Assembly (NCBI GenBank): GCA_016186955.1
Contig: JACPKP010000002.1
Coordinates: forward strand, 5,566 to 69,565
Direction of reading: 5' to 3'
DNA length: 64,000 nucleotides
Source: Candidatus Daviesbacteria bacterium
Lineage (GTDB): Bacteria; Patescibacteriota; Microgenomatia; Daviesbacterales; UBA10151
The position numbers were made by a program, and so were the translations under genes. Below, piece after piece: positions 4,818 through 48,079 of the stretch. The stretch's first letter is position 1. Each line of letters opens with the position of its first letter. The notes beneath the pieces were generated by a model, which was not told the origin of the DNA, ran no database searches, and worked only from the letters and a program-made list of their open reading frames with translations.

Positions 4818-7800
4818 ATGGACAAAGAGAAAAACACATCGTGGCATAAAATCTTCTTTTATGAATCCGAGCTGAAAAAGTCTTGGGGCATCAAACACTA
4901 TATTCAGGATTTCAAAATACCTATCTTTGATAGCTACAAACAAGCAGTCAAACTGCCAGTTGTTGACGCAGAACAACCCAATGAAAACATCCCGGAACCA
5001 AACGAAGAAATCATCAACAGAAGAAAAGAGATTACAAGGAAGATATCTGAGCAGCAGGAGATAGCCAGACAGGCAATATTTATAGCCAGATCAAAAGGTA
5101 TGCTTGATGAAGAATATACAAAACATAAAGAAGCCTTAATCAAAATTGCCCTTGAGGACCAGTTCCCAAGGATAAGAAGAGAAGCAGCGGTACAATTGAC
5201 GTTTCTTGCTAATTCCGAGTCTGATGGAGAACTCGTCAGGCATATGGCTACTTTAACCCGCAGAATTATCCGCCAAAAAGGGCAAATAGCTAAACTTAGC
5301 ACTGAACAGTCTTTGGCTGTCAGAACCAGCTGTTCTTTAAGTGATTCTTACGCCCAAAGGTCTGCAGTCCAGCTGGCAACCGCAGAGGTTTTAGATCCCA
5401 GGATCAGAAAACTGGTCTTAACAAGACTGCTGAAAGCAGGTATTTTTGACGGTTACAGTGGTGTGTCAAAGTTTATCAGTAATCACATTTTTAGAGACAG
5501 CAGAGATATCCAATGGGACAGGCTAAAACCCTTCACAACTTTATACTCCCACCCAAGCAAAGGGCTCCGCGTTTCAGCCCTTAGATCAATCGAAAAGAAA
5601 ATGGAAAATACCGGTCTTTGGCTGGCAGATGGTATCACCAGCTACCGGGATAAAACACCAAATATCCCTGAGGAAGCATTTTTACAAATACTCATCGCTT
5701 CCGAAGAAAGCGACCTACCAATCAAAAGGTTTGACTTATTATTTCAACTGGCAAATAAAAACCGGGCTATTTTAGAAGAATTAACCCTCCTTATTACATC
5801 TTTCCTGGAAGAAAAAGGTATCCGGGAAAATAATTTTTACGGCTATTCCTGGGTTTTGCGCGCACTTTTGCATAATAACCCAAAACCAGAATCATTACCT
5901 CTCCTGCTTAGCTGCCTTAAGAGATCGCTTTTTCTGTTAAAACAAACGCATGACAACCGGGATGACTGTCTTAAATTCTTAATTTCTCTATATGACCCGT
6001 CAGGGAAAAAATCTATTACAGCACGGAGAAATTACTACGGTATTGAGTGGCCATTACCAAGGGATACAAAACCACCTGCTCTTAAGATAATTAATCAAAC
6101 TTTAGACAAGCATATACTTGAGCTTGTACAAAAAATTCTGCCTAAAAAGGGTTTAAAACCTGAAAACATTGTGCAGATTAGTTCTGTTTGGGGTGGCATG
6201 GAACCTTTTTTGATCTATGTATCTAAACTAAAAAGCTGCAACTCAACATTCTACCAAGACATCATAAGCCTTATGGGTAAAGTCATAGCCCATACAGATC
6301 CTCCTACTTTCAAGGCATGGAAAAAGTGGCGTTATAACCTAAAGAATAAAAAAGTCAAAGAACAGGTTGGGTTTTTGGAAAGTGAAAGTCTAGACGCATA
6401 TGCAAATGATTATATGCTGAATGCTTCAGACATACTAAACAACAATTTACCTGAATTGATAACTAAAACCAAGGTTATTTTTGAGCAGTTTTTATCCTGC
6501 CCTGAAAAGTTTGTGCCAGAATCTGTTTCAAGTCAACTGGCATGTTTTCTGGCAGAGTATCGACCTTCAGACAGTAACTTTGAGTACATGGCAAAAATTG
6601 AAATATCGCGGAAAGAAGAATTACTCGGGGTTTTTACTAAATATATTACCTTAAAAGGTGACCTTGAACTTGCAAAACGTGCTGAAAAAAGTATTCAGGA
6701 GCTAAATGCATCGGCAGCCCAAAAAAGGGTGGCTATGGGAAAAGCCGGATTCTCTCACCTTAAAACAACCGGACAGATCCATGCTGAGATTGAAAGAATT
6801 AGGAAACGGTTGGGCGCTGAAAATGAAATTAAGGTGAAAAACCTTGCTGCAAACGGTGTTATTAAAAAATATGTACAAGCCAAAAACCATCTGGAGTATT
6901 TAAATTCCAAAAACATTCAACCATCAAGCGAAGATTTAGCTAATCTTTCATTGCTTCAAAACCAACTTATTAACACCCTGGGTAACGGGTTTGAAAATCT
7001 GCTGAGGGATTATCAAAGCATAGCTTTCTTGACTGCCAACCTGCCAAAGGATATCGACCCTCAACTGGCAAGCTTCTTAGAGAGGTATGCATTAACAAAG
7101 CCTTCGCATCAAAAAAGGATTGGGGTTGTAGAAGTTTTGATCCGGGAAAAACTCAGGGAGTTAGTTGACGATTTAGAGTATTGCTATCAAAGAAGATTTA
7201 TAAAACCCATACTGGATTCAGATGATAAAGAAGTCTACAAAACCATAAAAAATTTGAAGATACAAAAAGAGCTGTTTTCTTTGCTTGCTGCAAATCCTTC
7301 GACTTTATCTGTAGCACAGTTTACAGAAAAATTAGAGTTTGTTAAAAAACAGTTAAGTGAATTTAATGAGTTAGACGAAAAACTGGCATCTATTCAGGAA
7401 AGCCTGAGAAAAGAAAACCCCGGGCAAGATAACCACTTACTTTTTGTATTTACTGACAATCCACTGGTATGCCTCACTGTGGGAAAATATCCTGAGGGAG
7501 CTGTTTCATGCCAGAGCTACTGGCAGAGCAGTACAACTTTAGCAGCCTACCCAGCTGATGCAATGACCAAGCTATGCCTTTTGATCGACAAAAATAATCT
7601 GCCAGAAGATGTGGCCGAAAAACTGACCTGTGCAACAACCAATGAAGAAAAGTTAGAAATATTCAATAATAATACTTATGCTTTTTTAGAAGCAATGATC
7701 GCCAGAAGAGTCACTAAAATTGTCCGTGATGACCAAAGCCAGGAAGCCTGCATATTCCTTGAGCCGGTTTATACAAGCCATAATCAAACACTAATGACTA

Positions 7801-14995: not shown

Positions 14996-15068
14996 TCACC
15001 CTTTTAGTATATCTTACCCTATGGAGAAAAAATATCCCATGATACTCAAGTGGAGTCAATTGCTTCTT

Positions 15069-17465
15069 TCATCTACCAAAATCCCTGCGGCCCGGCCTGC
15101 CTCTTGTAGAACCTCTGGGGCTAAACCCTCTGTCATTTCCTCCAAAGCCGCCTCTGCCTCTATCCCGGAATCCGCTTCCTCCGGGTCTGCCGCCACCAAA
15201 ACCTCTCCTTTGGAAACCTCCTGCCGGACGGCCGCCGCCTCCTGAATACCCGCTTCCTTCCCCTCGCCCCACTGAAGACCCATCGAAGCGGCCAAAACCG
15301 GAGGAGCGTGAAGGCCTGCCTTCAGATTCTACCTTCCGGTCATCACCAAACAACATTGAAAGGGCAATTTTCCCTTGCGGGTCAACATCAGTCACGCGCA
15401 CATGTACAACCTGCCCTTCTGACACTATATCCTCAGGCCGTTCCACCCGCCCCGGCGCCATCTGTGAAACATGGACCAAACCGTCTTTGCCGGGTAAAAT
15501 TTCAACAAAAGCCCCGAACGGTGCAATCCTGACAACTTTACCATCGAATTCTTCTCCGGGTTTGACTTCTTTAAACATGCCTTCAACAGCTTCCATGGCT
15601 TTTGCGATAGACTCTTCATCCGTAGAGGAGATCATCACAGTTCCGTCATCCTCGATATCAATTTGCGCCCCTGTTTTGGCAATAATCCCGTTAATATTTT
15701 TACCTCCGGGACCGATCAACATGCCAATCTCTTCAGGTTTGATATGGGTTATCTTAATTTTAGGGGCGTACACACTAATCTTGATTTCTTTTGGCATCAC
15801 TTGAGCCATTCTTTCCAAAATAAACTCCCTGGCAGCTTTACCCTGACGCAGCGCTTCTTTGATAATGTCAAAGGTTAACCCATGTAATTTTGTGTCCATC
15901 TGGATACCGGTAATCCCGTTTTTGGTGCCGGCCACTTTAAAATCCATCTCCCCGTAAAAATCTTCCACCGCCTGCATATCCGTTATAACCTGAAATCCCT
16001 GTCCTGAGCCTTTTTTAATATTATGATCTGTTATAAGACCCATGGCGATACCTGCCACCGGTTCTACAGGCACACCCGCATCTAGCATTGCCAAAGTTGA
16101 GGCGCAAATTGCAGCTTGCGAGGTAGAGGCGTTAGCCCCCAAAACTTCCGAAACTACCCTGATTGCATAAGGAAAATCCTGGATTGAAGGGATCACACTC
16201 TCTAAAGATATCTCCCCTAAATTACCGTGGCCGATATCACGCCTGTTGGGCGAACCAATCCTTTTAACCTCTCCCGATGCAAAAGGATTAATACTCATAT
16301 TGTAATAATGCATAAAACGCTTGGAGCTTTCACCCTCCATACCTTCAAGGGTTTGGCCGACAGAGAGCGGGCCCAGTGTGGCAACTGAAAGCAGCTGGGA
16401 TCCTCCACGCTGGAACAGTGCGCTGCCATGAGCTCTCGGCAGAATGCCTATCTCCATATTAATCTCCCGTACCTCTTCCATACCTCTCCCGTCTACCCTT
16501 TTGCTTTTATTTAAGATTGTATCGTTCATTATCTCTTTGGCAACTTTGTCAAAAACCGCAACGACCTGGATCGCTGTCAATGTATCTGCATGCAGGGCGA
16601 TGATTTCGTCTTTGATGATATCACCGGTTAAGTCATGCCAGGTTTTATCTTTATCAAACAGGGCTGCTTCAATCCTCTCTTTGATATCTTTCCTAACCTG
16701 GGTCAAGAGCTTAACATCAATTTCTTCGGCTACATTAACAAATGTCTGTTTTTCTTTTCCTGCAGCTTTGGCAAATTCTGAAATTAAATCAATTACCGGC
16801 TGGGAAGCTGTATGGGCTTTCTTGATAGCATCAAATATAACCTCCTCTTTAACCTGTTTAGCCTCAGCTTCAATCATTGTTACCAGGTCTTTGCCGGAGG
16901 CAACCAACAGGTTAAAATTCAGGTTTTCAAAATCACTCAAATTCGGGTTAATCACAACCTCTCCATTGAGTTCTCCCACCCTTGTTAAACTGATCGGACC
17001 TGCCCAAGGCACGGAAGAGATGGACAACGCTGCAGCAGTACCGATCAACCCCAACTCAACAGGGTCGTTGATACCATCATAAGATAACACTGTGACAATA
17101 ACCTGGACTTCATCCCTGAAGTCTTTGGGGAAAAGCGGCCTGATGGAACGGTCAATGGCCCGGCCTGACAAGATTGATTTTTCAGACGGCCTGCCTTCTC
17201 TTTTGATAAATTTTTGAGGAGTAATACGCCCTGAGGCATAGTGTTTTTCCACATATTCTACAGAAAGCGGGAAATAGCCCGGATCCTCAGTGATAGGCTG
17301 GGTTGAAACCGTAGCCAATACTACTGTTTCACCCCATGTAGCCAAAACAGCAGCATCAGCCTGCAAAGCAAACTTGCCTGTTTCAAGTTTAAGAGTACGG
17401 CCGTTTAAGTCCATCTCCTTAGTAATAAACGAAGTTTTCTGCTTCGCAGTAACTTTATCTTTCAT
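15069..17465 (-). CDS. pnp: Polynucleotide phosphorylase with a C-terminal Arg/Gly-rich tail
   Basis: Two RNase PH-like domains, then KH and S1 (GKVVRIAPFGAFVEILPGKDGLVHVSQM), then an ~80-aa RGG/GRG-rich tail. Confidence 0.95.
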   Translation of the reverse strand: MKDKVTAKQKTSFITKEMDLNGRTLKLETGKFALQADAAVLATWGETVVLATVSTQPITEDPGYFPLSVEYVEKHYASGRITPQKFIKREGRPSEKSILSGRAIDRSIRPLFPKDFRDEVQVIVTVLSYDGINDPVELGLIGTAAALSISSVPWAGPISLTRVGELNGEVVINPNLSDFENLNFNLLVASGKDLVTMIEAEAKQVKEEVIFDAIKKAHTASQPVIDLISEFAKAAGKEKQTFVNVAEEIDVKLLTQVRKDIKERIEAALFDKDKTWHDLTGDIIKDEIIALHADTLTAIQVVAVFDKVAKEIMNDTILNKSKRVDGRGMEEVREINMEIGILPRAHGSALFQRGGSQLLSVATLGPLSVGQTLEGMEGESSKRFMHYYNMSINPFASGEVKRIGSPNRRDIGHGNLGEISLESVIPSIQDFPYAIRVVSEVLGANASTSQAAICASTLAMLDAGVPVEPVAGIAMGLITDHNIKKGSGQGFQVITDMQAVEDFYGEMDFKVAGTKNGITGIQMDTKLHGLTFDIIKEALRQGKAAREFILERMAQVMPKEIKISVYAPKIKITHIKPEEIGMLIGPGGKNINGIIAKTGAQIDIEDDGTVMISSTDEESIAKAMEAVEGMFKEVKPGEEFDGKVVRIAPFGAFVEILPGKDGLVHVSQMAPGRVERPEDIVSEGQVVHVRVTDVDPQGKIALSMLFGDDRKVESEGRPSRSSGFGRFDGSSVGRGEGSGYSGGGGRPAGGFQRRGFGGGRPGGSGFRDRGRGGFGGNDRGFSPRGSTRGRPGRRDFGR

Positions 17466-18077: not shown

Positions 18078-19655
18078 ATGTTAAGAATTGAAGGCTTGGA
18101 AGCGGTAGAATATCTGGAGAAAGCCCGCGGGACTATCCACAAAGAGGATACGGTTTTCAACCTGCCCTATCTTTCTAAAATGCTGGAGCTTGAGGCTTTA
18201 TTCCTCCAAAGGACCATGCAAAGCGGCCTCCCGGAAATTGCAGGGATCGCCATTGATGCAACCGGGTTTCCGGAGATTAACGGGTGGCGGGCGGACCTGT
18301 CCAAAATAATGGAGCAGTTCAATAACTTGAGGGGGAAACGGGAGCTTGAGCTTAGACCATTCCGGCAGCAGCTGCTGAATGCCTCTCCTGACGGCATAAT
18401 CTCAGCAGGCGCTAACCTAGCTGTAAAGCTCACTGAGGATATTCCGCTGATCCAGGCTTTCAGCGGGACTGACGACACCTTCAAAAAGGCGGTAAGTTCA
18501 GAAAAAGAACCAGGTTTGCCATTTTCCAAAAAAACAAGTTTCCCCGGGCTGCTGTTTACTGCTACCCCTTCTGACCCCCATAGGCTCAACCAAGGCCTTC
18601 TCAAATATTCCAAAAGTCTGGAATATGCTTTTAAGCTGGTTCCTGTTTTTAGGGAAGAGACTGTTTTATTTTGTGCCGGAATTTATTCCGGCAGGGTTAA
18701 TTTTTTAAACCGGCTGGATAAAAATCAAGGCTTGGCAAGCCCTCTAAGTAAACCTGAACAGCCAAACACACCCCAATATCTACCAGACTATTCAACCGCT
18801 TTTGAAAAAAACGTGCTGGGCTATGAACAATCCATACAACATGCCCTGCTTAATTTTGATGCTGCCAGGTTCAGCAGCAGCCAGGTTGATCAATATCTTG
18901 ATGCCCTTGCCCAGCTAAATAAATTAATAGCCAAATCTAAAAAATTCATGGATGCTGCCTTAAATTGTGATTACCAGACCAAAGAGGAGATAAACAGTTC
19001 AATTTTGGAAATTGCCGGAAAGACAAACGATATTTACTCCTCTTTGGATAATGATGAGCTGAGGAGCAGCTTGCAGCTTGCCATGGGTGGAAGCCTGGAT
19101 GCAGCCTACGGGCAGCCTAAACCGGAGCTGCAGCCGGCTCAAAACCTTGCCTTAAGAGCTCCCCGCCCGGTAGATCAAAAAGAGAATTTAAAATACAGCG
19201 CCAGGCAAAGGCTCCGGGAAATTCTGGAGGAGGTAAAAAAAGAGCCTGCAAATGATAAAACATCCAAAACTCTGCTTGATAAAGCTTTAGAAAATTATGG
19301 TTTTATAGAAAGCCTGGTAAATGAACCCGCCTTCAAAAATTACATTAATTTTATCAACCATAACCATAAATTCCGGGTTGTGCTTGCAGGCGGAGGTTTA
19401 TGTCCTTGGAGAATAGACTTGGGCAGCAAGAGCATTTATGTCGAGGGCTGCGGCGGTAGAAAAATATTTGAACAGGGTAATTCAGAGTATATAACTCATT
19501 TTTTGACTGTCGGTCGATTTGGAGATCCTACGCTGCTGGTGAGTAGAGAAAACCTTCAGGATTGGTGGAACAAGGATGGTGATTACTGTTATGTAAATGC
19601 TTTAGGGAAGATAACAAAAGAAAAACTAGTCAAAACAATACTAAACAAGCTTTAG
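18078..19655 (+). CDS. Orphan 525-aa hypothetical protein (GC-richer than its surroundings)
   Basis: Long ORF with coding-like composition and no recognisable motif. Its GC content is visibly higher than flanking housekeeping genes. Confidence 0.5.
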   Translation: MLRIEGLEAVEYLEKARGTIHKEDTVFNLPYLSKMLELEALFLQRTMQSGLPEIAGIAIDATGFPEINGWRADLSKIMEQFNNLRGKRELELRPFRQQLLNASPDGIISAGANLAVKLTEDIPLIQAFSGTDDTFKKAVSSEKEPGLPFSKKTSFPGLLFTATPSDPHRLNQGLLKYSKSLEYAFKLVPVFREETVLFCAGIYSGRVNFLNRLDKNQGLASPLSKPEQPNTPQYLPDYSTAFEKNVLGYEQSIQHALLNFDAARFSSSQVDQYLDALAQLNKLIAKSKKFMDAALNCDYQTKEEINSSILEIAGKTNDIYSSLDNDELRSSLQLAMGGSLDAAYGQPKPELQPAQNLALRAPRPVDQKENLKYSARQRLREILEEVKKEPANDKTSKTLLDKALENYGFIESLVNEPAFKNYINFINHNHKFRVVLAGGGLCPWRIDLGSKSIYVEGCGGRKIFEQGNSEYITHFLTVGRFGDPTLLVSRENLQDWWNKDGDYCYVNALGKITKEKLVKTILNKL

Positions 19656-19665
19656 AAATTAAATA

Positions 19666-20790
19666 CTATCCTCCGCCTCTATAAATTTTAGGTGTCAGCC
19701 AGTCTGGCGTTGGGGTCCCCCCATCTGGTGAGGCCGTTGCTGCGAATTCCCCGGACGGTACCTCCTCCGGTGATGGTACATCCTGTTGCGGTTGTATGTT
19801 TGTTGCCCCGATTTTTTTTTGGACTTGTTCTGTTTGAGGCTGTTGCGGTTGCTGCCCGGCTGGCGGTGAGCCTGCCGGATCCGCTGGCGGCGTTACGGGA
19901 ATCTGGAAGACTTTACTCAAGTCAAAGCCCTGCACAGCAGGTTCCTGCTGGGGTGGTTCGCTATACTGGATAGGGCTTGCATGCCCGCTAGCAGGCTGAA
20001 CAGGAGTTTGCACGGGTTGCGGAGTCTGCACGCTTTGGCCCTGCACCCTCCCGCCTGCCTGCATCGCCTGCCCTAGAGAAATAAACGTATCCGCAGTTAG
20101 GTTGTTTGTCAAATTGCCGGTTGCATCATAGATCCCTGTCAGGATATTTGTTGCAATATCCCCATCCAGGTTCAAACCCAAACCAGGAATAAGCTGTATC
20201 ATCATCTCGGAGATGGAATTGGTTGCAGGATCCACTATATTTACAGAACCAAAATTGGAGTTGAGGGATGAGTTATCAATATTTATAAGCGGGATATTTT
20301 GAAAACTCTGGATGTTTTGCTGGTAAACTGCACCAAGTTGGTTGGGCTGACCGGCGCCTATTGTAAAAATCATGTTGTAAGCGCCGCCCTGATATTTTGG
20401 GGTAATATGAACCGGCTCAAACCTCTGGCCGGGCACAACATGAAAAACCAGATTTAAGTTGGCGCCCTCAGGGTACCAGTCCAGCTTCTCAAGCGCAGGG
20501 ATCTTCCCTGAAGAATCCACCACGCCTTCCAACATCAAAGTTAAATCACCGCCGCCCTTAGGCAGTTCATTTGCCACATCCCCAACTCCATATAAATTAG
20601 TGTGTGAAACCCTGATTGTATCCTGTGTCACTAATGCCGCCCTTTTACCCGACTGTTGCAAAGAAAGCATCAGGGACAACGCAGCAGCCAGCTTATCCAC
20701 AGTAATTTTGGTAGGAAGAAAGATCAATATGTTTGAGGCTGAGGAAACCTGGTTTTTTAAATCTCCAAGCTGTAAGTCATATTTAGACAT
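19666..20790 (-). CDS. Hypothetical protein, possibly a degenerate DHH/DHHA1-like pseudo-phosphoesterase, with a Pro/Gln-rich C-terminal tail
   Basis: N-terminus ILIFLPTKITVDKLAAALSLMLSL resembles the NrnA-type motif I but lacks the His/Asp residues. The C-terminal 120 aa are low-complexity P/Q-rich. The gene is GC-rich. Confidence 0.35.
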   Translation of the reverse strand: MSKYDLQLGDLKNQVSSASNILIFLPTKITVDKLAAALSLMLSLQQSGKRAALVTQDTIRVSHTNLYGVGDVANELPKGGGDLTLMLEGVVDSSGKIPALEKLDWYPEGANLNLVFHVVPGQRFEPVHITPKYQGGAYNMIFTIGAGQPNQLGAVYQQNIQSFQNIPLINIDNSSLNSNFGSVNIVDPATNSISEMMIQLIPGLGLNLDGDIATNILTGIYDATGNLTNNLTADTFISLGQAMQAGGRVQGQSVQTPQPVQTPVQPASGHASPIQYSEPPQQEPAVQGFDLSKVFQIPVTPPADPAGSPPAGQQPQQPQTEQVQKKIGATNIQPQQDVPSPEEVPSGEFAATASPDGGTPTPDWLTPKIYRGGG

Positions 20791-25385: not shown

Positions 25386-25465
25386 ATAAATTTAAAGGTG
25401 GGACAAGCCCACCCTAATACAGTTGATATTGTAATCTCAAAACAACCCAAAAGTCAACCCTTAGG

Positions 25466-25500
25466 CAGAAAAAAGCCCCCCGCCAACCGGCAGGGGGCAA
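25466..25500 (-). terminator. Rho-independent terminator downstream of the cold-shock-domain gene
   Basis: The minus strand reads gccccctgccggttggcggggggcttttttctgcc: a GC stem followed by a T6 run. Confidence 0.5.
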
Positions 25501-25520
25501 AGACACCTGGAACCTGAACG

Positions 25521-25931
25521 TCAACCGGCCTGCTGCTGGACCAGCTTCTGACTAGGAAACCTGAATTTCGCCATCAAGTGCCACAAGGCATCGACGGCGT
25601 TTTCATGGACCTCCAAGTAAGCCCAACCAACCGCTCTTGAATCACCGTTGGCTGAAACAACCCGAACAAACACCACCCGCGGGGAGACACCCCCATCCAG
25701 AGCTTGCTGTTCGTTTGGTGAGACGACCTCACCTACTTTTGGATAATCCCATCCGAAAACCCCGGATTCAAGATCCACCCGGGGAACCCGGACAGCTTCA
25801 AGCCGGAAGTAAACATCCCTTCCGCCGGAATCAGGGACTATGAAACCATAGCCCCGATCCTCCCTGTAGAACTTCACGGTCCCTGTCTCAGCCACTCGAA
25901 AAACCTCCCAATGTTTCTTTCCAGATGCCAT
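25521..25931 (-). CDS. Cold-shock-domain protein with a C-terminal extension (GC-rich gene)
   Basis: GTVKFYREDRGYGFI matches the CSD RNP1 region. The gene is markedly GC-richer than its neighbours. Confidence 0.55.
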   Translation of the reverse strand: MASGKKHWEVFRVAETGTVKFYREDRGYGFIVPDSGGRDVYFRLEAVRVPRVDLESGVFGWDYPKVGEVVSPNEQQALDGGVSPRVVFVRVVSANGDSRAVGWAYLEVHENAVDALWHLMAKFRFPSQKLVQQQAG

Positions 25932-26031
25932 TGCACGAAGACAATCACAAACCGCTTAAGGTTTGCCACCATCTTTTGATGCGGGGGAATTGTAACACAA
26001 ACAGAATCAAGATGTCAAACTATGAGCTACC

Positions 26032-28158: not shown

Positions 28159-29070
28159 TCAAAACCAGCTCTTTTTTTTACCTAAACTTTGGGCTAACTG
28201 CTCATAAAGCTGTTTTTCTTTACTGGTTAAATTTTTGGGCACCTCTACTTTAACCCTCACATAATGGTCGCCGCTTCCACCTTTAAGGGTTGGCACACCT
28301 TTACCTTTGACCCTAACCAGGGAACCTGGCTGGGTTGCAGGAGGTATCCTCAGTTTGACTTTTCCATGGATAGTTTTAACTTCAATAGTGTCTCCCAAAA
28401 CCGCTTGCGGCACTGGAATTGTCTCCTCTGTAAAAATATCCGCGCCTTCTCTGTGAAAGAAAGGGTGGCGCCTGACCCGGAAAACTATATCCACATCCCC
28501 AAAACGCATCCTGGTGCCCTCATCAACCCCGGCCGGGATTTTAATAGTCATCCTCTCTTTCGCCATCCTTCCCTGGTTGCCTTCTACTCTTTGTATCTCT
28601 ATCTCTTTTGTTACGCCATGGACTGCCTCATCAAAAGTCAAATCCATCTGGTAAGTCTGCCTTCTCCTAAAACCCCTGCTAAACTCTGCCCCAAATCCGC
28701 TCATCCCAAAGATCTGCTCAAAAAGTTCAAAAGGGTCAGCAAAACCCTCACCCTGACCACTCGATGAAGACCAGCTATAGCTAAAACCGCCGTTGCCAAA
28801 AGGATTGAAACCGCCCTCAAAAGGATTGCCAGCCCGCTGGCCGCCTCCGCCGGGGGCAAACGCGCTATGCCCAAACTGGTCATAAGTTTTTCTCTTCCCC
28901 GGGTCTGATAAAACCTGATAAGCTTCAGACACCTCCTTGAATCTCTCTGCAGCCCCGGCGGTTTTATCCACATCAGGGTGATGCTGCCTGGCCAGTTTTC
29001 TGTAAGCAGATTTAATCTCCGCCTCAGAAGCAGACTTACCAACACCTAGAATTTCGTAATAATCACTCAT
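28159..29070 (-). CDS. J-domain co-chaperone (DnaJ class B/CbpA-like, no zinc finger)
   Basis: DYYEILGV...HHPDVDK (HPD) J-domain, a G/F-rich region and C-terminal substrate-binding domains. No CxxCxGxG repeats. Confidence 0.8.
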
Positions 29071-43647: not shown

Positions 43648-43908
43648 ATGAACAGGAAAGAACTGATTATAGTCTTTGCAATTACTTTTATAGTAGTCGC
43701 CATATGGATCATTTCAGATGCTTATCGCAATACTAAACCTTCTATACCGCCTGACCCTAAATTACAAAAAATTATGGATCCTGTTGACCCAAACTTTGAT
43801 GAAGAAACCATCAAGGCTATCAAAAACCCACCGGTGATACAAGTTCCGGTTATTACCAACCCGCAACCAAGCGAACAACCGGCAACGGGATCTGCTATTC
43901 CACAATGA
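43648..43908 (+). CDS. Small single-TM Pro-rich protein
   Basis: 86 aa with an N-terminal TM helix and a Pro-rich tail, overlapping the next gene. Confidence 0.3.
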   Translation: MNRKELIIVFAITFIVVAIWIISDAYRNTKPSIPPDPKLQKIMDPVDPNFDEETIKAIKNPPVIQVPVITNPQPSEQPATGSAIPQ

Positions 43909-44831
43909 AAATTCCAACATTATTGGGCTTGGCATTGCTGACAGTTGCAGTTGTTTTAGGCATCATCATTTTCTTTTATAAACAAAAGGTCCAAAAAGAA
44001 TTGGAACTTATTTTAATGCCTAAAAAAATCCAGGTGGCCAACATTACTGAATCTTCGGCAACAATAACCTGGCAAACATATACACCAGCGCTGGAGTCGG
44101 TGGTATACGGGGTTGATACAAATTTAGACCAGGCGCAAAATGATGACCGCAATCAAAATAACCAGGAGTTGCGTTTGACACATTTTGTAACCTTAAAAAA
44201 CCTGCAACCTGACAAAACCTACTATTTTAAGATACAAGGGCCACAATTCCTTTATCCAAACCAACCATTATCCTTTAAAACAGGCAAGGAAATCACAGCA
44301 GATACTACCCTAACCCCTCTGCGCGGAAGCGTTGTCGACCAAAGCCTGAACCCGGTTGACGAAGCTTTGGTGTTTCTAAAAATTACCGGAGCAGCTGAAC
44401 TGGCAGGTTTTACTACAACAGCAGGCAATTTTATAATCCCTTTAAAAGGCTTATACAAGCAGGATTTGGCAGGACAGTTTACACCCGAATTAATGCAGGA
44501 GGTTATTTTGACTGTATCCCGGGCAAATCTGGAGTCTTCTGCTGTGATAATTTTACCTCCGGTAAACCACTCCCTACCTCCAATTATACTGGGCGAAAAC
44601 CAGGATTTAAGGCATGAGATAGCAGCTTCCACTGCCCCAATTGCAACTATCTCCGCACAGCTGAAAAAGTTTGATTTAAACAATGACGGACAGTTGAATG
44701 CACTTGATGTATCAATTATGATTGACAATATTTCAAAAAAACAAAAATTAAAACAGGCTGATGTAAATGGGGACAGGAAAATTGACCAAAAAGATTTAGA
44801 CCTGCTGGAAAAAGCCCTCCAGTCGCTTTAA
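43905..44831 (+). CDS. Membrane-anchored protein with an FN3-like domain and a C-terminal dockerin-like Ca-binding repeat pair
   Basis: N-terminal TM, then ITWQTYTPALESVVYGVDTNL...TYYFKI (FN3/PAP-N-like), then DLNNDGQLNALDVSIM...DVNGDRKIDQKDLDLL (dockerin type I / EF-hand-like repeats). Confidence 0.5.
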   Translation: MKIPTLLGLALLTVAVVLGIIIFFYKQKVQKELELILMPKKIQVANITESSATITWQTYTPALESVVYGVDTNLDQAQNDDRNQNNQELRLTHFVTLKNLQPDKTYYFKIQGPQFLYPNQPLSFKTGKEITADTTLTPLRGSVVDQSLNPVDEALVFLKITGAAELAGFTTTAGNFIIPLKGLYKQDLAGQFTPELMQEVILTVSRANLESSAVIILPPVNHSLPPIILGENQDLRHEIAASTAPIATISAQLKKFDLNNDGQLNALDVSIMIDNISKKQKLKQADVNGDRKIDQKDLDLLEKALQSL

Positions 44832-44863
44832 AACCCATAGTCATTTGACTTCTCGTTTTAATT
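44811..44863 (+). repeat. Direct repeat 1 (gene-end plus promoter segment), with TTGACT-17-TATTAT promoter
   Basis: aagccctccagtcgctttaaaacccatagtcatttgac matches 46493-46528. -35 TTGACT at 44835-44840 and -10 TATTAT at 44858-44863. Confidence 0.6.
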
Positions 44864-44990
44864 CTGTTATTATCACCCTGCATTTATGTTTAAATGCTCT
44901 GCTCTTTCTTGAGCAGACAGCACTTTGAAAATTTGTGGAACAAAGTGAAGGAGGGATTTTTTAACCTATCGTTATCCGTCTGATCCGCCT

Positions 44991-46328
44991 TTGGTGGATC
45001 GTTCAGTCTCTAAATCAGGAGGAGTGATGAAAATCAGGCTAGTACTGACAGCAACCCTTGTGGTTGCCTACGCACTGTTTAATATGGCTTACGGGCCATT
45101 TCGCACAAACGTGCAGGCTCGTATGGCTACTGGTCAGGTCTCTAATGACCCCGCCACAGCAGCGCTTGCCCGCGCTGCTGCACAAAACGACCTGCTGATT
45201 ACTTGGGTTAGCGGAATACTGGTGGCGTTGTTGGTCCTTATCTGGATCACAGTGCTTCCAACACTTCTGCGGTTACTCAGAGACAACGGCAACGGTAAGA
45301 TACACATCATCGCCCTCGTGGTGATGCTGTTTGTCTTACCTTCCCTCGCCTGCGCCCCCTACAAAAAGGACCTCCTTGAGGAAATCGCTCCAAACGAGAC
45401 GGCTTTCCTGGTACCTCTTGAGGATACCAAAGACTCGCAAGCTCAGTTTCAAAGCGTGCAGTACCTCAATGAGAAAAAGGTAGCAGGCAAGAGGGTGACT
45501 ATCCCCCAGAGAGACTTGCATAAGGGCTATATGCCCTGGGAACTCGAATACATTCCAACCATGAAGGTCATTAAGGTTGACCGTACACCTGCAGTCCGTG
45601 AGTGGACCAAGGCTACGGATTCGGGCACGAGTGCCAACAACCAGGCCTTTAGGGTGGAATCAAACGAGTCCATCGATTTTTGGATCGGAGGTGTCGCAAG
45701 CGCCTCTATCAAGGAGGAAGACGCGGCAACCTTTTTGTACAACTTCCCCAATAAGCCTTTAGCCCAGGTTATGGACAGCAATGTCCGCAACATGGTGCAA
45801 AAGATCTTGTTCAATGAGTTCGGTATCCGGTCTCTTGACCAGGGAAGGCAGGACAAGAAGGTCATTTTTTCGTATACCGAGGAACAAGTCCGCGCTGCCT
45901 TTAAACCGCTCGGCCTCACTATTGATTACGTCGGCGGCAGTGAGGGTATGACTTACGCTGATCCCAAAATCCAGGAAGGGATCAATACGGTTTTCGCGGC
46001 ACAGTTGGAGAAATCCAGGCAGGAAGCGTTAAAACGGGCGCAGGAAGAGACAAACCTCAAGGATATCTCCGTCGCTGAAACCGCAAAGCGCAAAGTTGAG
46101 CTTGATGCCGACGCGAACGCTTATCGCACAAGGACTGAAGCGATAGCTTCGGCGGATGCCTTAAGGTTGAGAGGCGAACAACTCGATAAACACCCAAGTC
46201 TGGTTGACTTTGAAGTTGCCCAGCGCTACAAGGGTGATGTACCCGAAACTGTCGTTGACGGTGGTGGTGGCAACTTACCCGGGTTTTTCTTAAACCCTGG
46301 TCGCCGCACAACTCCTGTACAACGCTAG
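44991..46328 (+). CDS. SPFH/band-7 (stomatin/HflK-like) membrane protein, GC-rich gene
   Basis: Two or three N-terminal TM helices, then a band-7-like core (FLYNFPNKPLAQVMDSNVRNMVQKILFNEFGIRSLDQGRQ) and an Ala/Glu/Arg-rich coiled-coil (LEKSRQEALKRAQEE...AYRTRTEAIASADALRLRGE). Confidence 0.5.
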   Translation: MVDRSVSKSGGVMKIRLVLTATLVVAYALFNMAYGPFRTNVQARMATGQVSNDPATAALARAAAQNDLLITWVSGILVALLVLIWITVLPTLLRLLRDNGNGKIHIIALVVMLFVLPSLACAPYKKDLLEEIAPNETAFLVPLEDTKDSQAQFQSVQYLNEKKVAGKRVTIPQRDLHKGYMPWELEYIPTMKVIKVDRTPAVREWTKATDSGTSANNQAFRVESNESIDFWIGGVASASIKEEDAATFLYNFPNKPLAQVMDSNVRNMVQKILFNEFGIRSLDQGRQDKKVIFSYTEEQVRAAFKPLGLTIDYVGGSEGMTYADPKIQEGINTVFAAQLEKSRQEALKRAQEETNLKDISVAETAKRKVELDADANAYRTRTEAIASADALRLRGEQLDKHPSLVDFEVAQRYKGDVPETVVDGGGGNLPGFFLNPGRRTTPVQR

Positions 46329-46336
46329 TTCCACAA

Positions 46337-46452
46337 CTTTCTGCCGGTTAGCCTCAAGCTAACCCTAAAGCCACACAGGCGTGGCTTGATGGGACAGCCT
46401 CAAGGCTGACAGGCAGTTGGGCCCCGATGTAACAGTCGGGGCCTTTTTTTGC
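46337..46452 (+). terminator. ~110-bp structured element (three hairpins plus a GC stem/T7 intrinsic terminator), copy 1
   Basis: Hairpins ggttagc-ctcaa-gctaacc, gccac-acagg-cgtggc and cagcc-tcaa-ggctg, then gggccccgatgtaacagtcggggcc followed by TTTTTTT. Near-identical copy at 47659-47771. Confidence 0.65.
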
Positions 46453-46492
46453 CTGCCTGCAGAAATGAATCAAAAAGATATGGGCCTGTTAC

Positions 46493-46553
46493 AAAGCCCT
46501 CCAGTCGCTTTAAAAACCCATAGTTTGACAAATTATAAAATCTGTGCTAGAAT
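46493..46553 (+). repeat. Direct repeat 2 with a consensus sigma70 promoter (TTGACA-17-TAGAAT)
   Basis: aagccctccagtcgctttaaaaacccatagtttgac. TTGACA at 46525-46530, 17-nt spacer, TAGAAT at 46548-46553. Confidence 0.6.
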
Positions 46554-46721
46554 CCCAAGTGACAAAAGTTTTCAACTTTTGCAGCACATTAAAAATTTGA
46601 GGGCTATTCAGTCTATCAGTTGGGAAGCGCAAAGTATATCAAGCCTTTGGTGTATTTTGTGCTTCTCATCTGAGAGCTGGCAGACAGCAGCCATGGATGC
46701 TGACTTATCAAAAGGAGGAGG

Positions 46722-47074
46722 CTGTGAAAGCCGTCTTAGGAACAATCGGCGTGGTTCTTGGAGCGCTTTTAGTGCTCCTGGCGCTCACCTGGATGGCCCA
46801 GGGGAGCAATTTTTTCCTGTACAAGGTGTTCGCACATCAGTACGCGGTTGTAGAACGCGAGGTGTACGAAGGTACACCGAGCTACAATCAGGGGATGATT
46901 CAGGAGCTGCAGAACATGCAGCGCGAGTACCTGAAGGCTCCTGAGGATAGCAAACCGGCGCTGCGCAAGATCATTTTGCGTCGGTCGGATGCGTATCCGA
47001 ACAAGGATAGGATGCCTGCGGATCTGCAGGCTTTTATCGCTCAGCTTGAGCGCGAAGAGCGCTCTGCACGCTGA
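46722..47074 (+). CDS. Small single-TM protein (GTG start after AAAGGAGG RBS), GC-rich
   Basis: aaaggaggaggct followed by GTG AAA GCC... gives VKAVLGTIGVVLGALLVLLALTWMAQ... The longer track ORF from 46697 lacks an RBS. Confidence 0.4.
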
Positions 47075-47091
47075 CGAAAAAGGAGTAGCGA

Positions 47092-47643
47092 GTGAAGTCT
47101 CGTTTTAAACTCGTGCGGTTAGTAGCCGTAGCAGCTGTTTTGGTAACGGCAGTCTGGGGCTGCGCCCCAGCGCCTACGCCCACAAGTGACCAACAGCAGA
47201 CCCGGCAGCAGGACAAGCTGCTGGAAGAAGGTACCCGGCAGACCGGGATGCCCAACATCGTCAACTTCCGGGAACGGAAGATGATGAAGGACATCCTGGA
47301 ACTGCGTGACCAGGAAGGCTTGGTCACGTTCACCTACCTGGAGAATCTTTCTCCGATAGTGGTTCCGGGTAAAACCGCGCTGGGCGGAAAGTTGACGTTC
47401 CTTGGCGAGTCGGTTGGTTACGGGTTGCCGTATGCAACCCAATATACCAACCCGCAGAGGGTCATAAACCCCTACACGTCGGCGATAACCACCCTGCCCC
47501 AGGCTGACCCGAATGGGCTCTTCTCGCCGGCTTCGGCCGAGGGGACCTGGGTGATCCTGAAGGATCCGGGCAGCAATAAAACCGGGGTGGTTTACGTTGA
47601 ACCCCGGATTGTGGTTTCACCCTTCAAGTATCAACCAGACTGA
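47092..47643 (+). CDS. Lipoprotein (lipobox LVTAVWGC), GC-rich
   Basis: Signal peptide MKSRFKLVRLVAVAAVLVTAVWG followed by Cys. AAAAGGAG RBS upstream. Confidence 0.5.
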   Translation: MKSRFKLVRLVAVAAVLVTAVWGCAPAPTPTSDQQQTRQQDKLLEEGTRQTGMPNIVNFRERKMMKDILELRDQEGLVTFTYLENLSPIVVPGKTALGGKLTFLGESVGYGLPYATQYTNPQRVINPYTSAITTLPQADPNGLFSPASAEGTWVILKDPGSNKTGVVYVEPRIVVSPFKYQPD

Positions 47644-47658
47644 CTCTCGAATTCAATC

Positions 47659-47771
47659 GTTCTGCCGGTTAGTCTCAAGCTAACCCTAAAGCCACACAGG
47701 CGTGGCTTGATGGGACAGCCTCAAGGCTGACAGACAGTGGCCCCGATGTAAAAGTCGGGGCCTTTTTTTGC
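47659..47771 (+). terminator. ~110-bp structured element plus intrinsic terminator, copy 2
   Basis: Same three hairpins and ggccccgatgtaaaagtcggggcc followed by TTTTTTT. Confidence 0.65.
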
Positions 47772-47787
47772 CCAAAAAATCCCGCCC

Positions 47788-47818
47788 TAAAAAGGGCGGG
47801 ATTTGGATAATTACCTGG
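47788..47818 (-). terminator. Intrinsic terminator for the minus-strand DUF378 gene (bidirectional hairpin)
   Basis: atcccgccctaaaaagggcgggat is a 9-bp GC stem. On the minus strand it is followed by TTTTTTGGG. Confidence 0.5.
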
Positions 47819-47827
47819 AAACTAAAA

Positions 47828-48079
47828 TTATTTTTTAGCGCCGCAGATTTTGCAATCCTGCATGTGTGTAAACCCCAAATATACCGCTGCAACCCCCACC
47901 AGAATATACACCAGTTTTTCCAACCCCAATGAACCAAAAATAGCGCTTACCAAATTAAAATCAAAAAGCCCCATTAAACCCCAATTGAGCGCGCCAACTA
48001 ACACCAGCGTAAATACCACCATATGTAGCATTTTGTTATTCATACTCCTCACCTCCCTCTTGATATACATTGTACTCAT
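47828..48079 (-). CDS. DUF378-family small membrane protein
   Basis: VVFTLVLVGALNWGLMGLFDFNLVSAIFG matches the DUF378 signature (GALNWGLVGLF.FDLVAAIFG). Confidence 0.55.
   Translation of the reverse strand: MSTMYIKREVRSMNNKMLHMVVFTLVLVGALNWGLMGLFDFNLVSAIFGSLGLEKLVYILVGVAAVYLGFTHMQDCKICGAKK

Follow-up and report, generated by a model that had tools for sequence, protein, structure and literature searches.

Phage morons are independent transcription units that have been added to phage or prophage genomes (PMC3594210). BoxA leaders are known at ribosomal RNA (rrn) operons, at the nut sites of phage lambda, where the order is boxB-boxA-boxC, at suhB, and at CRISPR arrays (PMC5725501, PMC7665894); their consensus in gamma-proteobacteria is GYTCTTTAANA, and it shifts with phylogenetic distance (PMC5725501). 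PeSLs, in turn, combine a promoter and a terminator in one composite motif and mediate the shuffling of modules in T4-type phages (PMC2839356, PMC4122927). The locus compared here with these systems is a GC-rich island in a contig of Candidatus Daviesbacteria (Patescibacteria, candidate phyla radiation, CPR; contig JACPKP010000002.1 of assembly GCA_016186955.1), of which positions 5,566 to 69,565 of the forward strand, a stretch of 64,000 nucleotides referred to as the window, were analysed. The island holds two tandem modules, each opening with a repeated, promoter-bearing sequence (the head) and closing with a repeated, structured element (the tail). Module 1 encloses the gene for a protein P1, and module 2 those for a pair of proteins, P2 and P3.

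A first-pass annotation, made from the sequence without database searches, had described two modules, each with a promoter, GC-rich cargo, and a terminator in a shared framework, and the analysis of promoters, terminators, and composition bears this out; each module also has a leader of its own and is an autonomous unit. The observation is real: head, tail, promoters, and deviating composition are present at or near the positions first given for them, and above chance. Taken together, head and tail suggest not a classical mobile element but an expression shell that can be reused for acquired genes. On balance, we consider it somewhat probable that these are two moron-like, self-contained expression modules in a lineage-typical, recombination-prone regulatory shell, and that their tandem state arose from recombination within that shell.

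Anatomy of the two modules

The elements that delimit the modules, and the genes that they carry, are the following.

44779–44849, plus strand: head repeat A1, made of dockerin codons KIDQKDLDLLE (44779–44810), the core AAAGCCCTCCAGTCGCTTTAAAACCCATAGT (44811–44841), a 3-nt spacer, and the -35
44845–44873, plus strand: module 1 promoter TTGACT-17-TATTAT with a TG extension (TGtTATTAT), 10 of 12 consensus matches plus TG, with an CCCATAGT box 3 nt upstream
45027–46328, plus strand: P1, 433 residues, with N-terminal transmembrane segments and a remote SPFH/band-7-like domain (phrog_200 at 1.9e-15)
46339–46453, plus strand: tail B1, a 76-nt nested hairpin (46341–46416) and an intrinsic terminator (46419–46450, GC stem plus T7)
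46454–46462, plus strand: 9-nt junction from tail B1 to the dockerin remnant
46463–46529, plus strand: head repeat A2, a decayed, frame-shifted copy of the dockerin C-terminus (46463–46492), the core (46493–46524), and the -35 abutting directly
46525–46553, plus strand: module 2 promoter TTGACA-17-TAGAAT with a TG extension (TGcTAGAAT), 11 of 12 matches
46724–47074, plus strand: P2, 116 residues, a small protein with a single transmembrane segment, GTG start, and strong Shine-Dalgarno (SD) sequence (phrog_26268 at 7.5e-4)
47092–47643, plus strand: P3, 183 residues, lipoprotein-like, with an invariant Cys24 (phrog_24725 at 2e-32)
47660–47772, plus strand: tail B2, a nested hairpin (47662–47737) and a terminator (47739–47769)

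The head had been described as a direct repeat of about 36 bp. The repeat exists, but it is longer than that, with a dockerin remnant upstream and an extension downstream through CCCATAGT up to the -35. Its centre is a 31-nt core, AAAGCCCTCCAGTCGCTTTAAAA(A)CCCATAGT (44811–44841 and 46493–46524), whose two copies are identical except for one extra A; 44811–44833 equals 46493–46515 exactly, a sequence found twice in the window against zero copies expected, and the CCCATAGT boxes lie at 44834–44841 and 46517–46524. The final ~53 nt of the dockerin gene form the left part of A1, so that this repeat is, as proposed, the actual 3' end of that gene. Approximately the last 11 dockerin codons (44779–44810) recur in decayed form upstream of the second core (46463–46492), with 73% identity and a 2-nt deletion, and this remnant still reads EMNQKDMGLLQ against the KIDQKDLDLLE of the dockerin C-terminus. 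The mismatches are unevenly spread, with nine in the 32 nt of the remnant and none in the 31 nt of the core (Fisher p = 0.0012): the untranslated remnant decayed, and the identity of the core was kept either by its proximity to the promoter or by gene conversion. Because the dockerin remnant precedes module 2, this module or its frame once directly followed a dockerin gene end. As a result of this arrangement, direct repeats (44779–44841 and 46463–46524) flank module 1, one of them inside the dockerin 3' end, as in duplicated attachment (att) sites.

Both promoters had been called near-consensus sigma-70 promoters, and in a scan of 8 kb they are among the top matches, with that of module 2 the best and that of module 1 tied second. 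Both modules therefore combine an own promoter (10–11 of 12 matches plus TG) with an intrinsic terminator.

The tails B1 and B2 are 97% identical, differing by three substitutions and a 2-nt indel, and occur twice in the window against zero expected. The near-identity of these elements, first given as ~110 bp long, and their GC-stem/T7 terminator stand, whereas the three hairpins originally drawn give way to a single nested hairpin, which is strongly favoured for the 76-nt element (-41.3 kcal/mol, compared with -21.5 for three hairpins, or -28.8 when an outer stem is added). Folding of the tails exceeds that of shuffled sequence (z -6.4 and -4.7), and we infer that they act as a strong termination and 3'-stabilising signal. 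A tRNA-like nature was considered and rejected, as ARAGORN gives no match and the cloverleaf alternative is 12–20 kcal/mol worse than the nested hairpin. Over the window and its relatives, Rfam yields nothing at the gathering threshold, and the low-scoring matches are terminator or hairpin look-alikes. Searches of IMG/VR, of JGI metagenomes (by exact 24-mer), of GenBank phages (by blastn), and of 257 loci fetched for comparison (given by L numbers below) gave no further copies of the tail or of the head core. The closest relatives of module 2 end in different, simple hairpins and are devoid of the dockerin remnant. Since the tail is not found elsewhere and these relatives carry simple hairpins instead, it is confined to this genome or its closest relatives.

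The composition of the island is distinct, as the first-pass annotation had supposed. GC content jumps from ~40% to 50–58% over 2.9 kb past the dockerin gene and returns to 33–41% at a convergent DUF378 gene, giving 51.8% for the island against 41.3% in the remaining window. At third codon positions (GC3), values are 0.585 for P1, 0.658 for P2, and 0.690 for P3, compared with 0.388 ± 0.057 in the 47 other window open reading frames (ORFs) of at least 150 residues (z 3.5 to 5.3), and the island genes prefer AAG, ATC, and CGC where AAA, ATT, and AGR are used elsewhere. Other GC maxima of the window (0.51–0.54; 15001–15600, 18201–18600, 19601–20200, 25401–26000, and 28401–29000) carry neither head nor tail motifs.

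With regard to the cargo and the proposal of an SPFH/band-7 protein, 10 of the 27 homologues of P1 (34–53% identity) carry PF01145 (band 7) in precomputed annotation, but P1 itself has no Pfam match of its own at E < 0.1. The prediction of a small transmembrane protein and a lipoprotein in module 2 agrees with the features of P2 and P3 and with their PHROG families. A structure model of P3 (pLDDT 69) gave no significant PDB or viral fold match, PDB sequence searches were empty, and a PADLOC search for defence systems returned no matches.

Upstream of the island, the gene order lepA–murJ–rpsT–pilN–pilO–small ORF–FN3/dockerin gene forms a conserved block. The features next to the island on its two sides are the following.

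43905–44831, plus strand: FN3/dockerin surface-protein gene (Pfam Dockerin_1 at 3e-11, Pur_ac_phosph_N, fn3)
47774–47804, no strand assigned: hairpin AAATCCCGCCCT/AGGGCGGGATTT at the right edge of the island, probably the terminator of the convergent DUF378 gene
47828–48079, minus strand: DUF378 gene (Pfam DUF378 at 8.5e-19), convergent to the island

Neither a recombinase nor an integrase is encoded within ±6 kb of the island, where the flanks hold housekeeping genes, and no phage structural or integration genes surround it (flanks lepA, murJ, rpsT, pilN/O, holA, and LytR). The junction from dockerin gene to module 1 and the stretch from tail B1 through the 9-nt junction and second head into module 2 are reproduced at 100% identity in independent Logan contigs from five sequencing runs, although unitigs of k=31 provide no phasing across the 61-nt identical core of the tails. 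The downstream DUF378 gene, looked up as an independent confirmation of the right junction, was not on record. The Logan unitig that carries module 2 (L001, against window positions 46383–47703) spans exactly one tail-to-tail period of 1321 nt, continuous from head to tail, and its gene call starts P2 at the same position; its structure is compatible with a 1321-bp circular or excised form and with the tandem form.

Leaders, relatives, and recurrence of the head

Two features go beyond the first-pass annotation: the longer dockerin remnant described above and a boxA-type leader between each promoter and its cargo.

44880–44917, plus strand: two module 1 leader stem-loops, GCATTTA..TAAATGC and TCTGCTC..GAGCAGA, boxB-like by position
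44920–44938, plus strand: boxA-like GCACTTTGAAAA, then GT-rich TTTGTGG (boxC-like), 9 of 11 positions of GYTCTTTAANA
44982–45000, plus strand: distal module 1 leader hairpin GATCCGCC..GGTGGATC, with flanks GTTATCCG and GTTCA..CTCTAA, followed by the SD sequence and the ATG at 45027
46561–46603, plus strand: module 2 leader stem-loop (46561–46582), boxA-like GCACATTAAAAA (46584–46595), and TTTGAGGG
46622–46667, plus strand: long module 2 leader hairpin GGGAAGCGCA..TGTGCTTCTC, kept in L256 with changes on both arms

The leaders follow a common plan, in which one or two stem-loops precede GCAC(A/T)TT(G/A)AAAA and TTTG(T/C/A)GG; an SD-like AAGGAGG frequently comes next, and GTTATCC, a hairpin, and the real SD sequence complete the order. 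The alignment of six heads, four from module 1 and two from module 2, runs from CCCATAGT across the promoter and on into the leader, and the boxA-like motif is kept in all six. The first stem-loops covary between relatives, as does the second module 1 stem (TCCCG/CGGGA in L134, GCTCCC/GGGAGC in L135), and the distal module 1 hairpin, whose stem also covaries, is homologous to those in the leaders of L134 and of L050, a relative of module 2. The module 1 leader of the window aligns with that of L050 over ~95 nt (z 8.9), and the two module 2 leaders align with each other (z 13.7). The long hairpin at 46622–46667 gives rise to microRNA matches in the RNA-family search, which were discarded as spurious.

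The motifs of the window match 9 of the 11 positions of GYTCTTTAANA, a gamma-proteobacterial consensus that may not be that of the host, and lie 30–46 nt past the -10, right after the stem-loops and before TTTGTGG or TTTGAGGG, which is the position expected of a boxA. Exact matches to this consensus stand at the equivalent position of P2-P3 leaders in other CPR genomes, in L015 (TGTTCTTTAACAATTTA) and L048. The sequence in L015 is presumably identical at 16 of 17 positions to the boxA region of Escherichia coli rrn operons. Of 26 promoter-bearing P2-P3 leaders, 8 contain a degenerate boxA pattern (0.16 expected); among 63 viral P2-P3 upstream regions, 2 do so (0.85 expected). A helix between leader and trailer around the coding sequence, as in rRNA operons, was also considered and dismissed: no signal emerges from 24 P2-P3 loci (mean z -0.19), and module 1, with 13 nt of leader-trailer complementarity, reaches only z -2.3.

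Several further leader structures were observed. After the boxA-like motif, the P2-P3 leaders of L015, L018, L024, L026, and L035 hold a conserved long hairpin, GGYYRCATYTTTTAG…CTAAAAGATGYRRCC, in nut-like order and with apparent covariation, and two further hairpin types are found in L025/L027/L047 and in L042/L048. In L051 (3195–3332), a boxA-like GCAGTTTGACAATTTGCGG lies upstream of a P1 homologue; after this motif, a 41-codon ORF encodes a hydrophobic peptide and stops at the SD sequence of the main gene.

Synteny in relatives could be followed for module 1 and its head, although not for its tail, as the contigs concerned (L052, L053, L134, and L135) end before the tail position. Four dockerin orthologues were traced, at 60–62% identity, which retain the order S20-PilN-PilO-x-dockerin. 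In L053, L134, and L135, the dockerin gene ends with the same core, and CCCATAGT, the promoter, a homologous leader, and a P1 orthologue follow in the same arrangement as in the window. P1 is 78–85% identical in these relatives, above the dockerin protein (60–62%) and PilO, and its GC content is 0.54–0.58 against 0.36–0.40 upstream. Because it occupies the same place with the same head in L053, L134, and L135 at ~65% flank identity, module 1 is an old syntenic resident with retained atypical composition and no recent insertion; being present in all three relatives examined, it displays no presence/absence polymorphism of the kind associated with att-bounded elements. L135 (1290–1700) represents a natural deletion variant, with an intact head and a P1 gene that lacks ~310 N-terminal codons and keeps the C-terminal ~120 residues in frame. 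L052 (9125–9285) has a GC-rich, strongly self-complementary insert of ~150 nt between the dockerin stop and an CCCCATAGTTTGACA head, after which the contig ends; this insert has no Rfam match and no copy in the other fetched loci. A P1 homologue of 49% identity occurs on the unrelated contig L051 (GC 0.547 against flanks of 0.416), and no P1 was found in viral contigs.

The P2-P3 pair, on the other hand, is widely distributed. P3 has 2866 homologues, typically at 55–65% identity, and P2 and P3 are adjacent in 108 of 126 fetched loci from CPR genomes and viruses; among these loci are 38 GTDB genomes, most of them from Patescibacteria, and 80 of 166 IMG/VR contigs. Those 166 contigs and the PHROG matches constitute the phage link of the cargo; in a viral contig of 116 kb, the neighbours of the pair are nearly all unannotated. 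In CPR genomes, P2-P3 is often 5–17 points GC-richer than its flanks, a contrast that is near zero in viral contigs. A near-consensus promoter lies 50–185 nt upstream of the pair at 23 of 37 bacterial-genome loci, compared with 1 of 63 viral loci and none of the shuffled controls; the pair thus behaves as embedded in an operon in phages and as an autonomous unit in bacterial chromosomes. The promoter of module 2 is kept alongside the module in L050 and L024, and the sites occupied elsewhere vary: the pair follows lepA in L007, neighbours a divergent gene in L256, and comes behind a hairpin in L050. L007 also holds, upstream of lepA (2551–2850), a patch of 56% GC in a contig of 36% GC that overlaps only a 54-residue ORF and matches no Rfam family.

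The head recurs with other cargoes as well. JGI metagenomes scanned with the pattern CCCATAGT-N0-3-TTGAC-N15-TGnTAnnAT contain this head type on at least 120 contigs (L136–L255), mostly of 33–50% GC, the excess over chance for the 8-mer not being rigorously established. In these contigs, the CCCATAGT 8-mer stands 0–3 nt upstream of a consensus -35, and several have a second CC(C/T)ATAG ~27 nt further upstream, so that CCCATAGT resembles a promoter-proximal element specific to the lineage, which could be UP-like or serve as a factor site. Such promoters appear to be real because a yjdF (azaaromatic) riboswitch (73 bits; L175:270–457, minus strand) starts ~25 nt past the -10 of one of them; the same observation covers L146 and L244. 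The CCCATAGT and -35 part of the 36-bp repeat is a generic promoter element of the lineage rather than the end of an element.

Among the matches listed, none of the contigs encodes P1, P2, or P3, which argues that the head shell carries many cargoes, and 15 of 98 distinct heads have a boxA-like motif within 220 nt downstream (0.8 expected), each directly after stem-loops. Six of the 15 motifs are then followed by TTGCG(G/A) (0.05 expected), and others by GGTGTAGTGTGGG. Also among these matches, downstream DNA is richer in GC than its contig by 0.063 for boxA-positive heads and by 0.016 for boxA-negative ones (Mann-Whitney p = 2.5e-4). Groups of head-bearing contigs share conserved downstream RNAs. 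In L147, L220, L234, L235, L238, and L239, a conserved hairpin RNA of ~70 nt (…GGGGAGCTCATGTAGGGCAGGCGTGAGCTTCCC… and then a T-run) comes right after double-box promoters and may be an undescribed small RNA; in L147 and L220, it reaches the Rfam gathering score for no family.

Three unrelated metagenome contigs have GC-rich cargo set between repeated frame elements. L229 has the order head-cargo-tail-head-cargo-tail, in which both heads carry a boxA motif and one GTTATCC, the two structured tails of ~80 nt are 94–100% identical, and cargo GC is 0.55 against 0.47. In L155, a composite hairpin-plus-head unit is present 3 to 5 times, and L188 contains a GC-rich module of ~700 nt with this head type, flanked by a 52-nt direct repeat. 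The tail of the latter module (L188:1930–1975) shows a tRNA-like T-arm, GTAGGTTCGAATCCTAC, where ARAGORN calls no tRNA, and the heads of L137, L154, L233, and L254 begin 15–30 nt after apparent tRNA 3' ends; there are hints in these five contigs of tRNA-associated insertion sites.

Proposed mechanism and origin of the tandem state

Under the reading favoured here, the cargo would be envelope proteins that stem from the pool of phage and mobile genes in CPR bacteria, placed in a shell that comprises a strong sigma-70 promoter with an CCCATAGT box at the -35 and a TGn-extended -10, a structured leader, the GC-rich coding part, and a tail of hairpin plus terminator. RNA polymerase starting from these promoters may be modified at boxA by NusB/NusE and their partners, and the modified enzyme would transcribe cargo of foreign composition processively and resist premature (Rho-type) termination until it reaches the tail, whose hairpin might also protect the 3' end of the mRNA. 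Shared heads and tails would provide portable homology through which cargo is swapped or added by recombination. The tandem could have formed when one module came to lie next to the other at the dockerin 3' end, duplicating the last ~55 nt of that gene, after which the untranslated dockerin copy would have decayed and the promoter-proximal core stayed identical. Direct observations comprise the anatomy and composition of the island, the homologous heads, the conserved position of module 1, how widely the module 2 pair and the head type occur, and the comparable arrays on other contigs. Antitermination through Nus factors, what the tail does, and the path of recombination are predicted steps. 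A tentative extension, which we regard as unlikely in this full form, is that CPR bacteria, at least those similar to Microgenomates, own a dedicated, recombination-competent shell that captures GC-rich phage and other genes, shields their transcription from Rho-type silencing, and exchanges cargo through head and tail, possibly by way of 1321-bp circles.

Several points weigh against the favoured reading. Two copies do not suffice to reconstruct the recombination pathway, and from them three origins are inseparable: recombination between single-module alleles, Campbell-type insertion of a small circle, and in-situ duplication with replacement of the cargo. The persistence of a GC-rich module 1 at ~65% flank identity fits compositional selection as well as it fits foreign origin. 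The tail is known from its two copies in this genome only, too few to trace its predicted function by covariation or distribution. The boxA identity derives from sequence and position; the degenerate motif is not enriched window-wide (7 found against 5.3 expected), the motif counts take in leaders related by descent and hence are non-independent, and the window and fetched loci contain no 16S or rRNA leader from which the boxA of the lineage could be read. Finally, among the matches listed, the 70 nt upstream of a head recur downstream in only 4 of 67 testable heads, the window locus included, against none in the reverse-complement control.

The idea of cassette-like acquisition into a reusable framework thus survives in part: the head recurs with other, mostly GC-richer cargo, the families are phage-associated, and L229, L155, and L188 show comparable arrays, but module 1 is an old resident. 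By contrast, the suggestion that the 36-bp repeat and the 110-bp element are the ends of a mobile unit is not supported, given a tail with no further copies in the databases and loci searched, relatives of module 2 with other tails, and no recombinase nearby.

A more elaborate form of that suggestion takes one of the modules, either module 1 or module 2 in the form of a 1321-bp circle, for a small integrative element whose heads are attL and attR at the dockerin 3' end, served by a recombinase in trans. The direct repeats around module 1, which include a gene 3' end, the ~700-nt GC-rich module of L188 with the same head type inside its 52-nt repeat, the heads just past tRNA 3' ends (L137, L154, L233, and L254), and unitigs compatible with a circle all agree with such an element. 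Nevertheless, no integrase is encoded within ±6 kb among the housekeeping flanks, module 1 is syntenic in three diverged relatives, the duplication of the tail is left unexplained, no further copies of repeat core or tail turned up in the searched databases and loci, and the closest module 2 relatives have no dockerin-derived sequence. Because of the missing recombinase, the synteny of module 1, and the unexplained tail duplication, a classical integrative element is less likely, and we consider it doubtful.

Slightly more doubtful is an in-situ tandem duplication of an ancestral unit (dockerin 3' end, promoter, gene, and tail), in which P2-P3 later replaced one coding part through the homologous head. 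Both repeats would be accounted for in a single step, the decay of the non-coding remnant alongside conserved functional parts would follow naturally, and the head homology offers a crossover site. However, two events are required, module 2 holds no trace of P1 sequence, and the right-hand replacement junction (47644–47659) has no homology; the present data do not separate this scenario from its allelic-recombination version.

It is improbable that head core and tail are alike only as cis-regulatory sites of one regulon, maintained by purifying selection or by gene conversion between neighbours, with no mobility of cargo at this locus. The core is indeed kept at synonymous sites in L053 and L134 and stayed identical while the remnant decayed, and both modules encode envelope proteins; yet the dockerin C-terminal remnant before module 2 would go unexplained, module 2 has other tails at other loci elsewhere, and the two tails, which are non-coding and belong to unrelated genes, are 97% identical over 115 nt, which needs a common origin or conversion. 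Least probable by far are two further readings. An integron-like cassette array, with the 110-nt element in the role of attC, has the layout of tandem ORFs with structured 3' elements and a GTTGGGC (GTTRRRY) in B1 but is excluded by its missing defining features (no IntI, GTTRRRY destroyed in B2 as GTGGCCC, no RYYYAAC at the 5' end, own promoters, and a terminator inside the element). An assembly artefact is unlikely even though repeats could in principle mislead assemblers, since the junctions recur at 100% identity in independent assemblies of five sequencing runs.

In the reading of two moron-like modules in a shared shell, the boxA-like leader before acquired protein genes is the most interesting element, its function being a prediction. 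If it is truly a Nus/boxA site, horizontally acquired protein genes would join rRNA, suhB, and CRISPR arrays as targets of boxA control, and this in a radiation that is little studied and largely uncultured; it would also offer a testable answer to the question of how genomes that are reduced and AT-rich express genes of foreign composition. With ~2900 homologues and adjacency in most of 126 loci, the P2-P3 pair is a good candidate for a function of the phage-host interface at the cell envelope, and the repeated frame of head and tail would represent a simple recombinational route to the turnover of accessory genes with no dedicated recombinase.

Comparison with described modular systems

Like integron cassettes, the modules are tandem ORFs that end in a structured, imperfect palindrome of about the length of an attC site (~60–120 nt), highly similar between neighbours. 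Unlike them, they have no integrase and no conserved R'/R'' core sites, possess their own promoters and leaders, include a terminator in the element, and number only two. Islands that duplicate the 3' end of their target resemble module 1 in the direct repeat of the dockerin 3' end that flanks it, with a non-coding displaced copy; however, no recombinase is present, the unit measures only 1.6 kb, it was in place before the relatives diverged, and the second repeat family, that of the tail, has no explanation in such islands.

PeSLs are closer in organisation. The stretch from tail B1 to head A2 (46339–46553) is a conserved terminator-plus-promoter unit between unrelated ORFs, it recurs as PeSLs do, and comparable repeats exist in L229 and L155. 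It gives homology for insertion, deletion, and replacement, and the possible 1321-bp circle would resemble the mini-circles of PeSLs. Unlike these, the unit has only two copies here, lies in a bacterial chromosome rather than in a phage hyperplastic region, and is unrelated in sequence, and the exchange itself is inferred.

With rrn and nut sites, the leaders share the order of a stem-loop, a GYTCTTTAANA-like motif, and a GT-rich stretch shortly past a strong promoter and, as there, the motif lies upstream of transcripts that may otherwise be liable to termination. They differ in that the cargo consists of translated, horizontally spread protein genes and that the window motifs deviate at 2 of 11 positions, the likeness being one of sequence and position.

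Morons differ from the present modules in several respects, as these reside in a bacterial chromosome between housekeeping genes with no surrounding prophage, module 1 keeps a stable synteny, head and tail are common to both units, the leader is boxA-like, and the same P2-P3 pair in viral contigs almost never has its own promoter. On the other side, each module resembles a moron in its own promoter and terminator, in a composition that deviates from the neighbouring genes (cargo GC3 of 0.59–0.69 against 0.39 ± 0.06), in the phage protein families to which its products belong, and in small cargo of the envelope and lipoprotein type, as in many morons.

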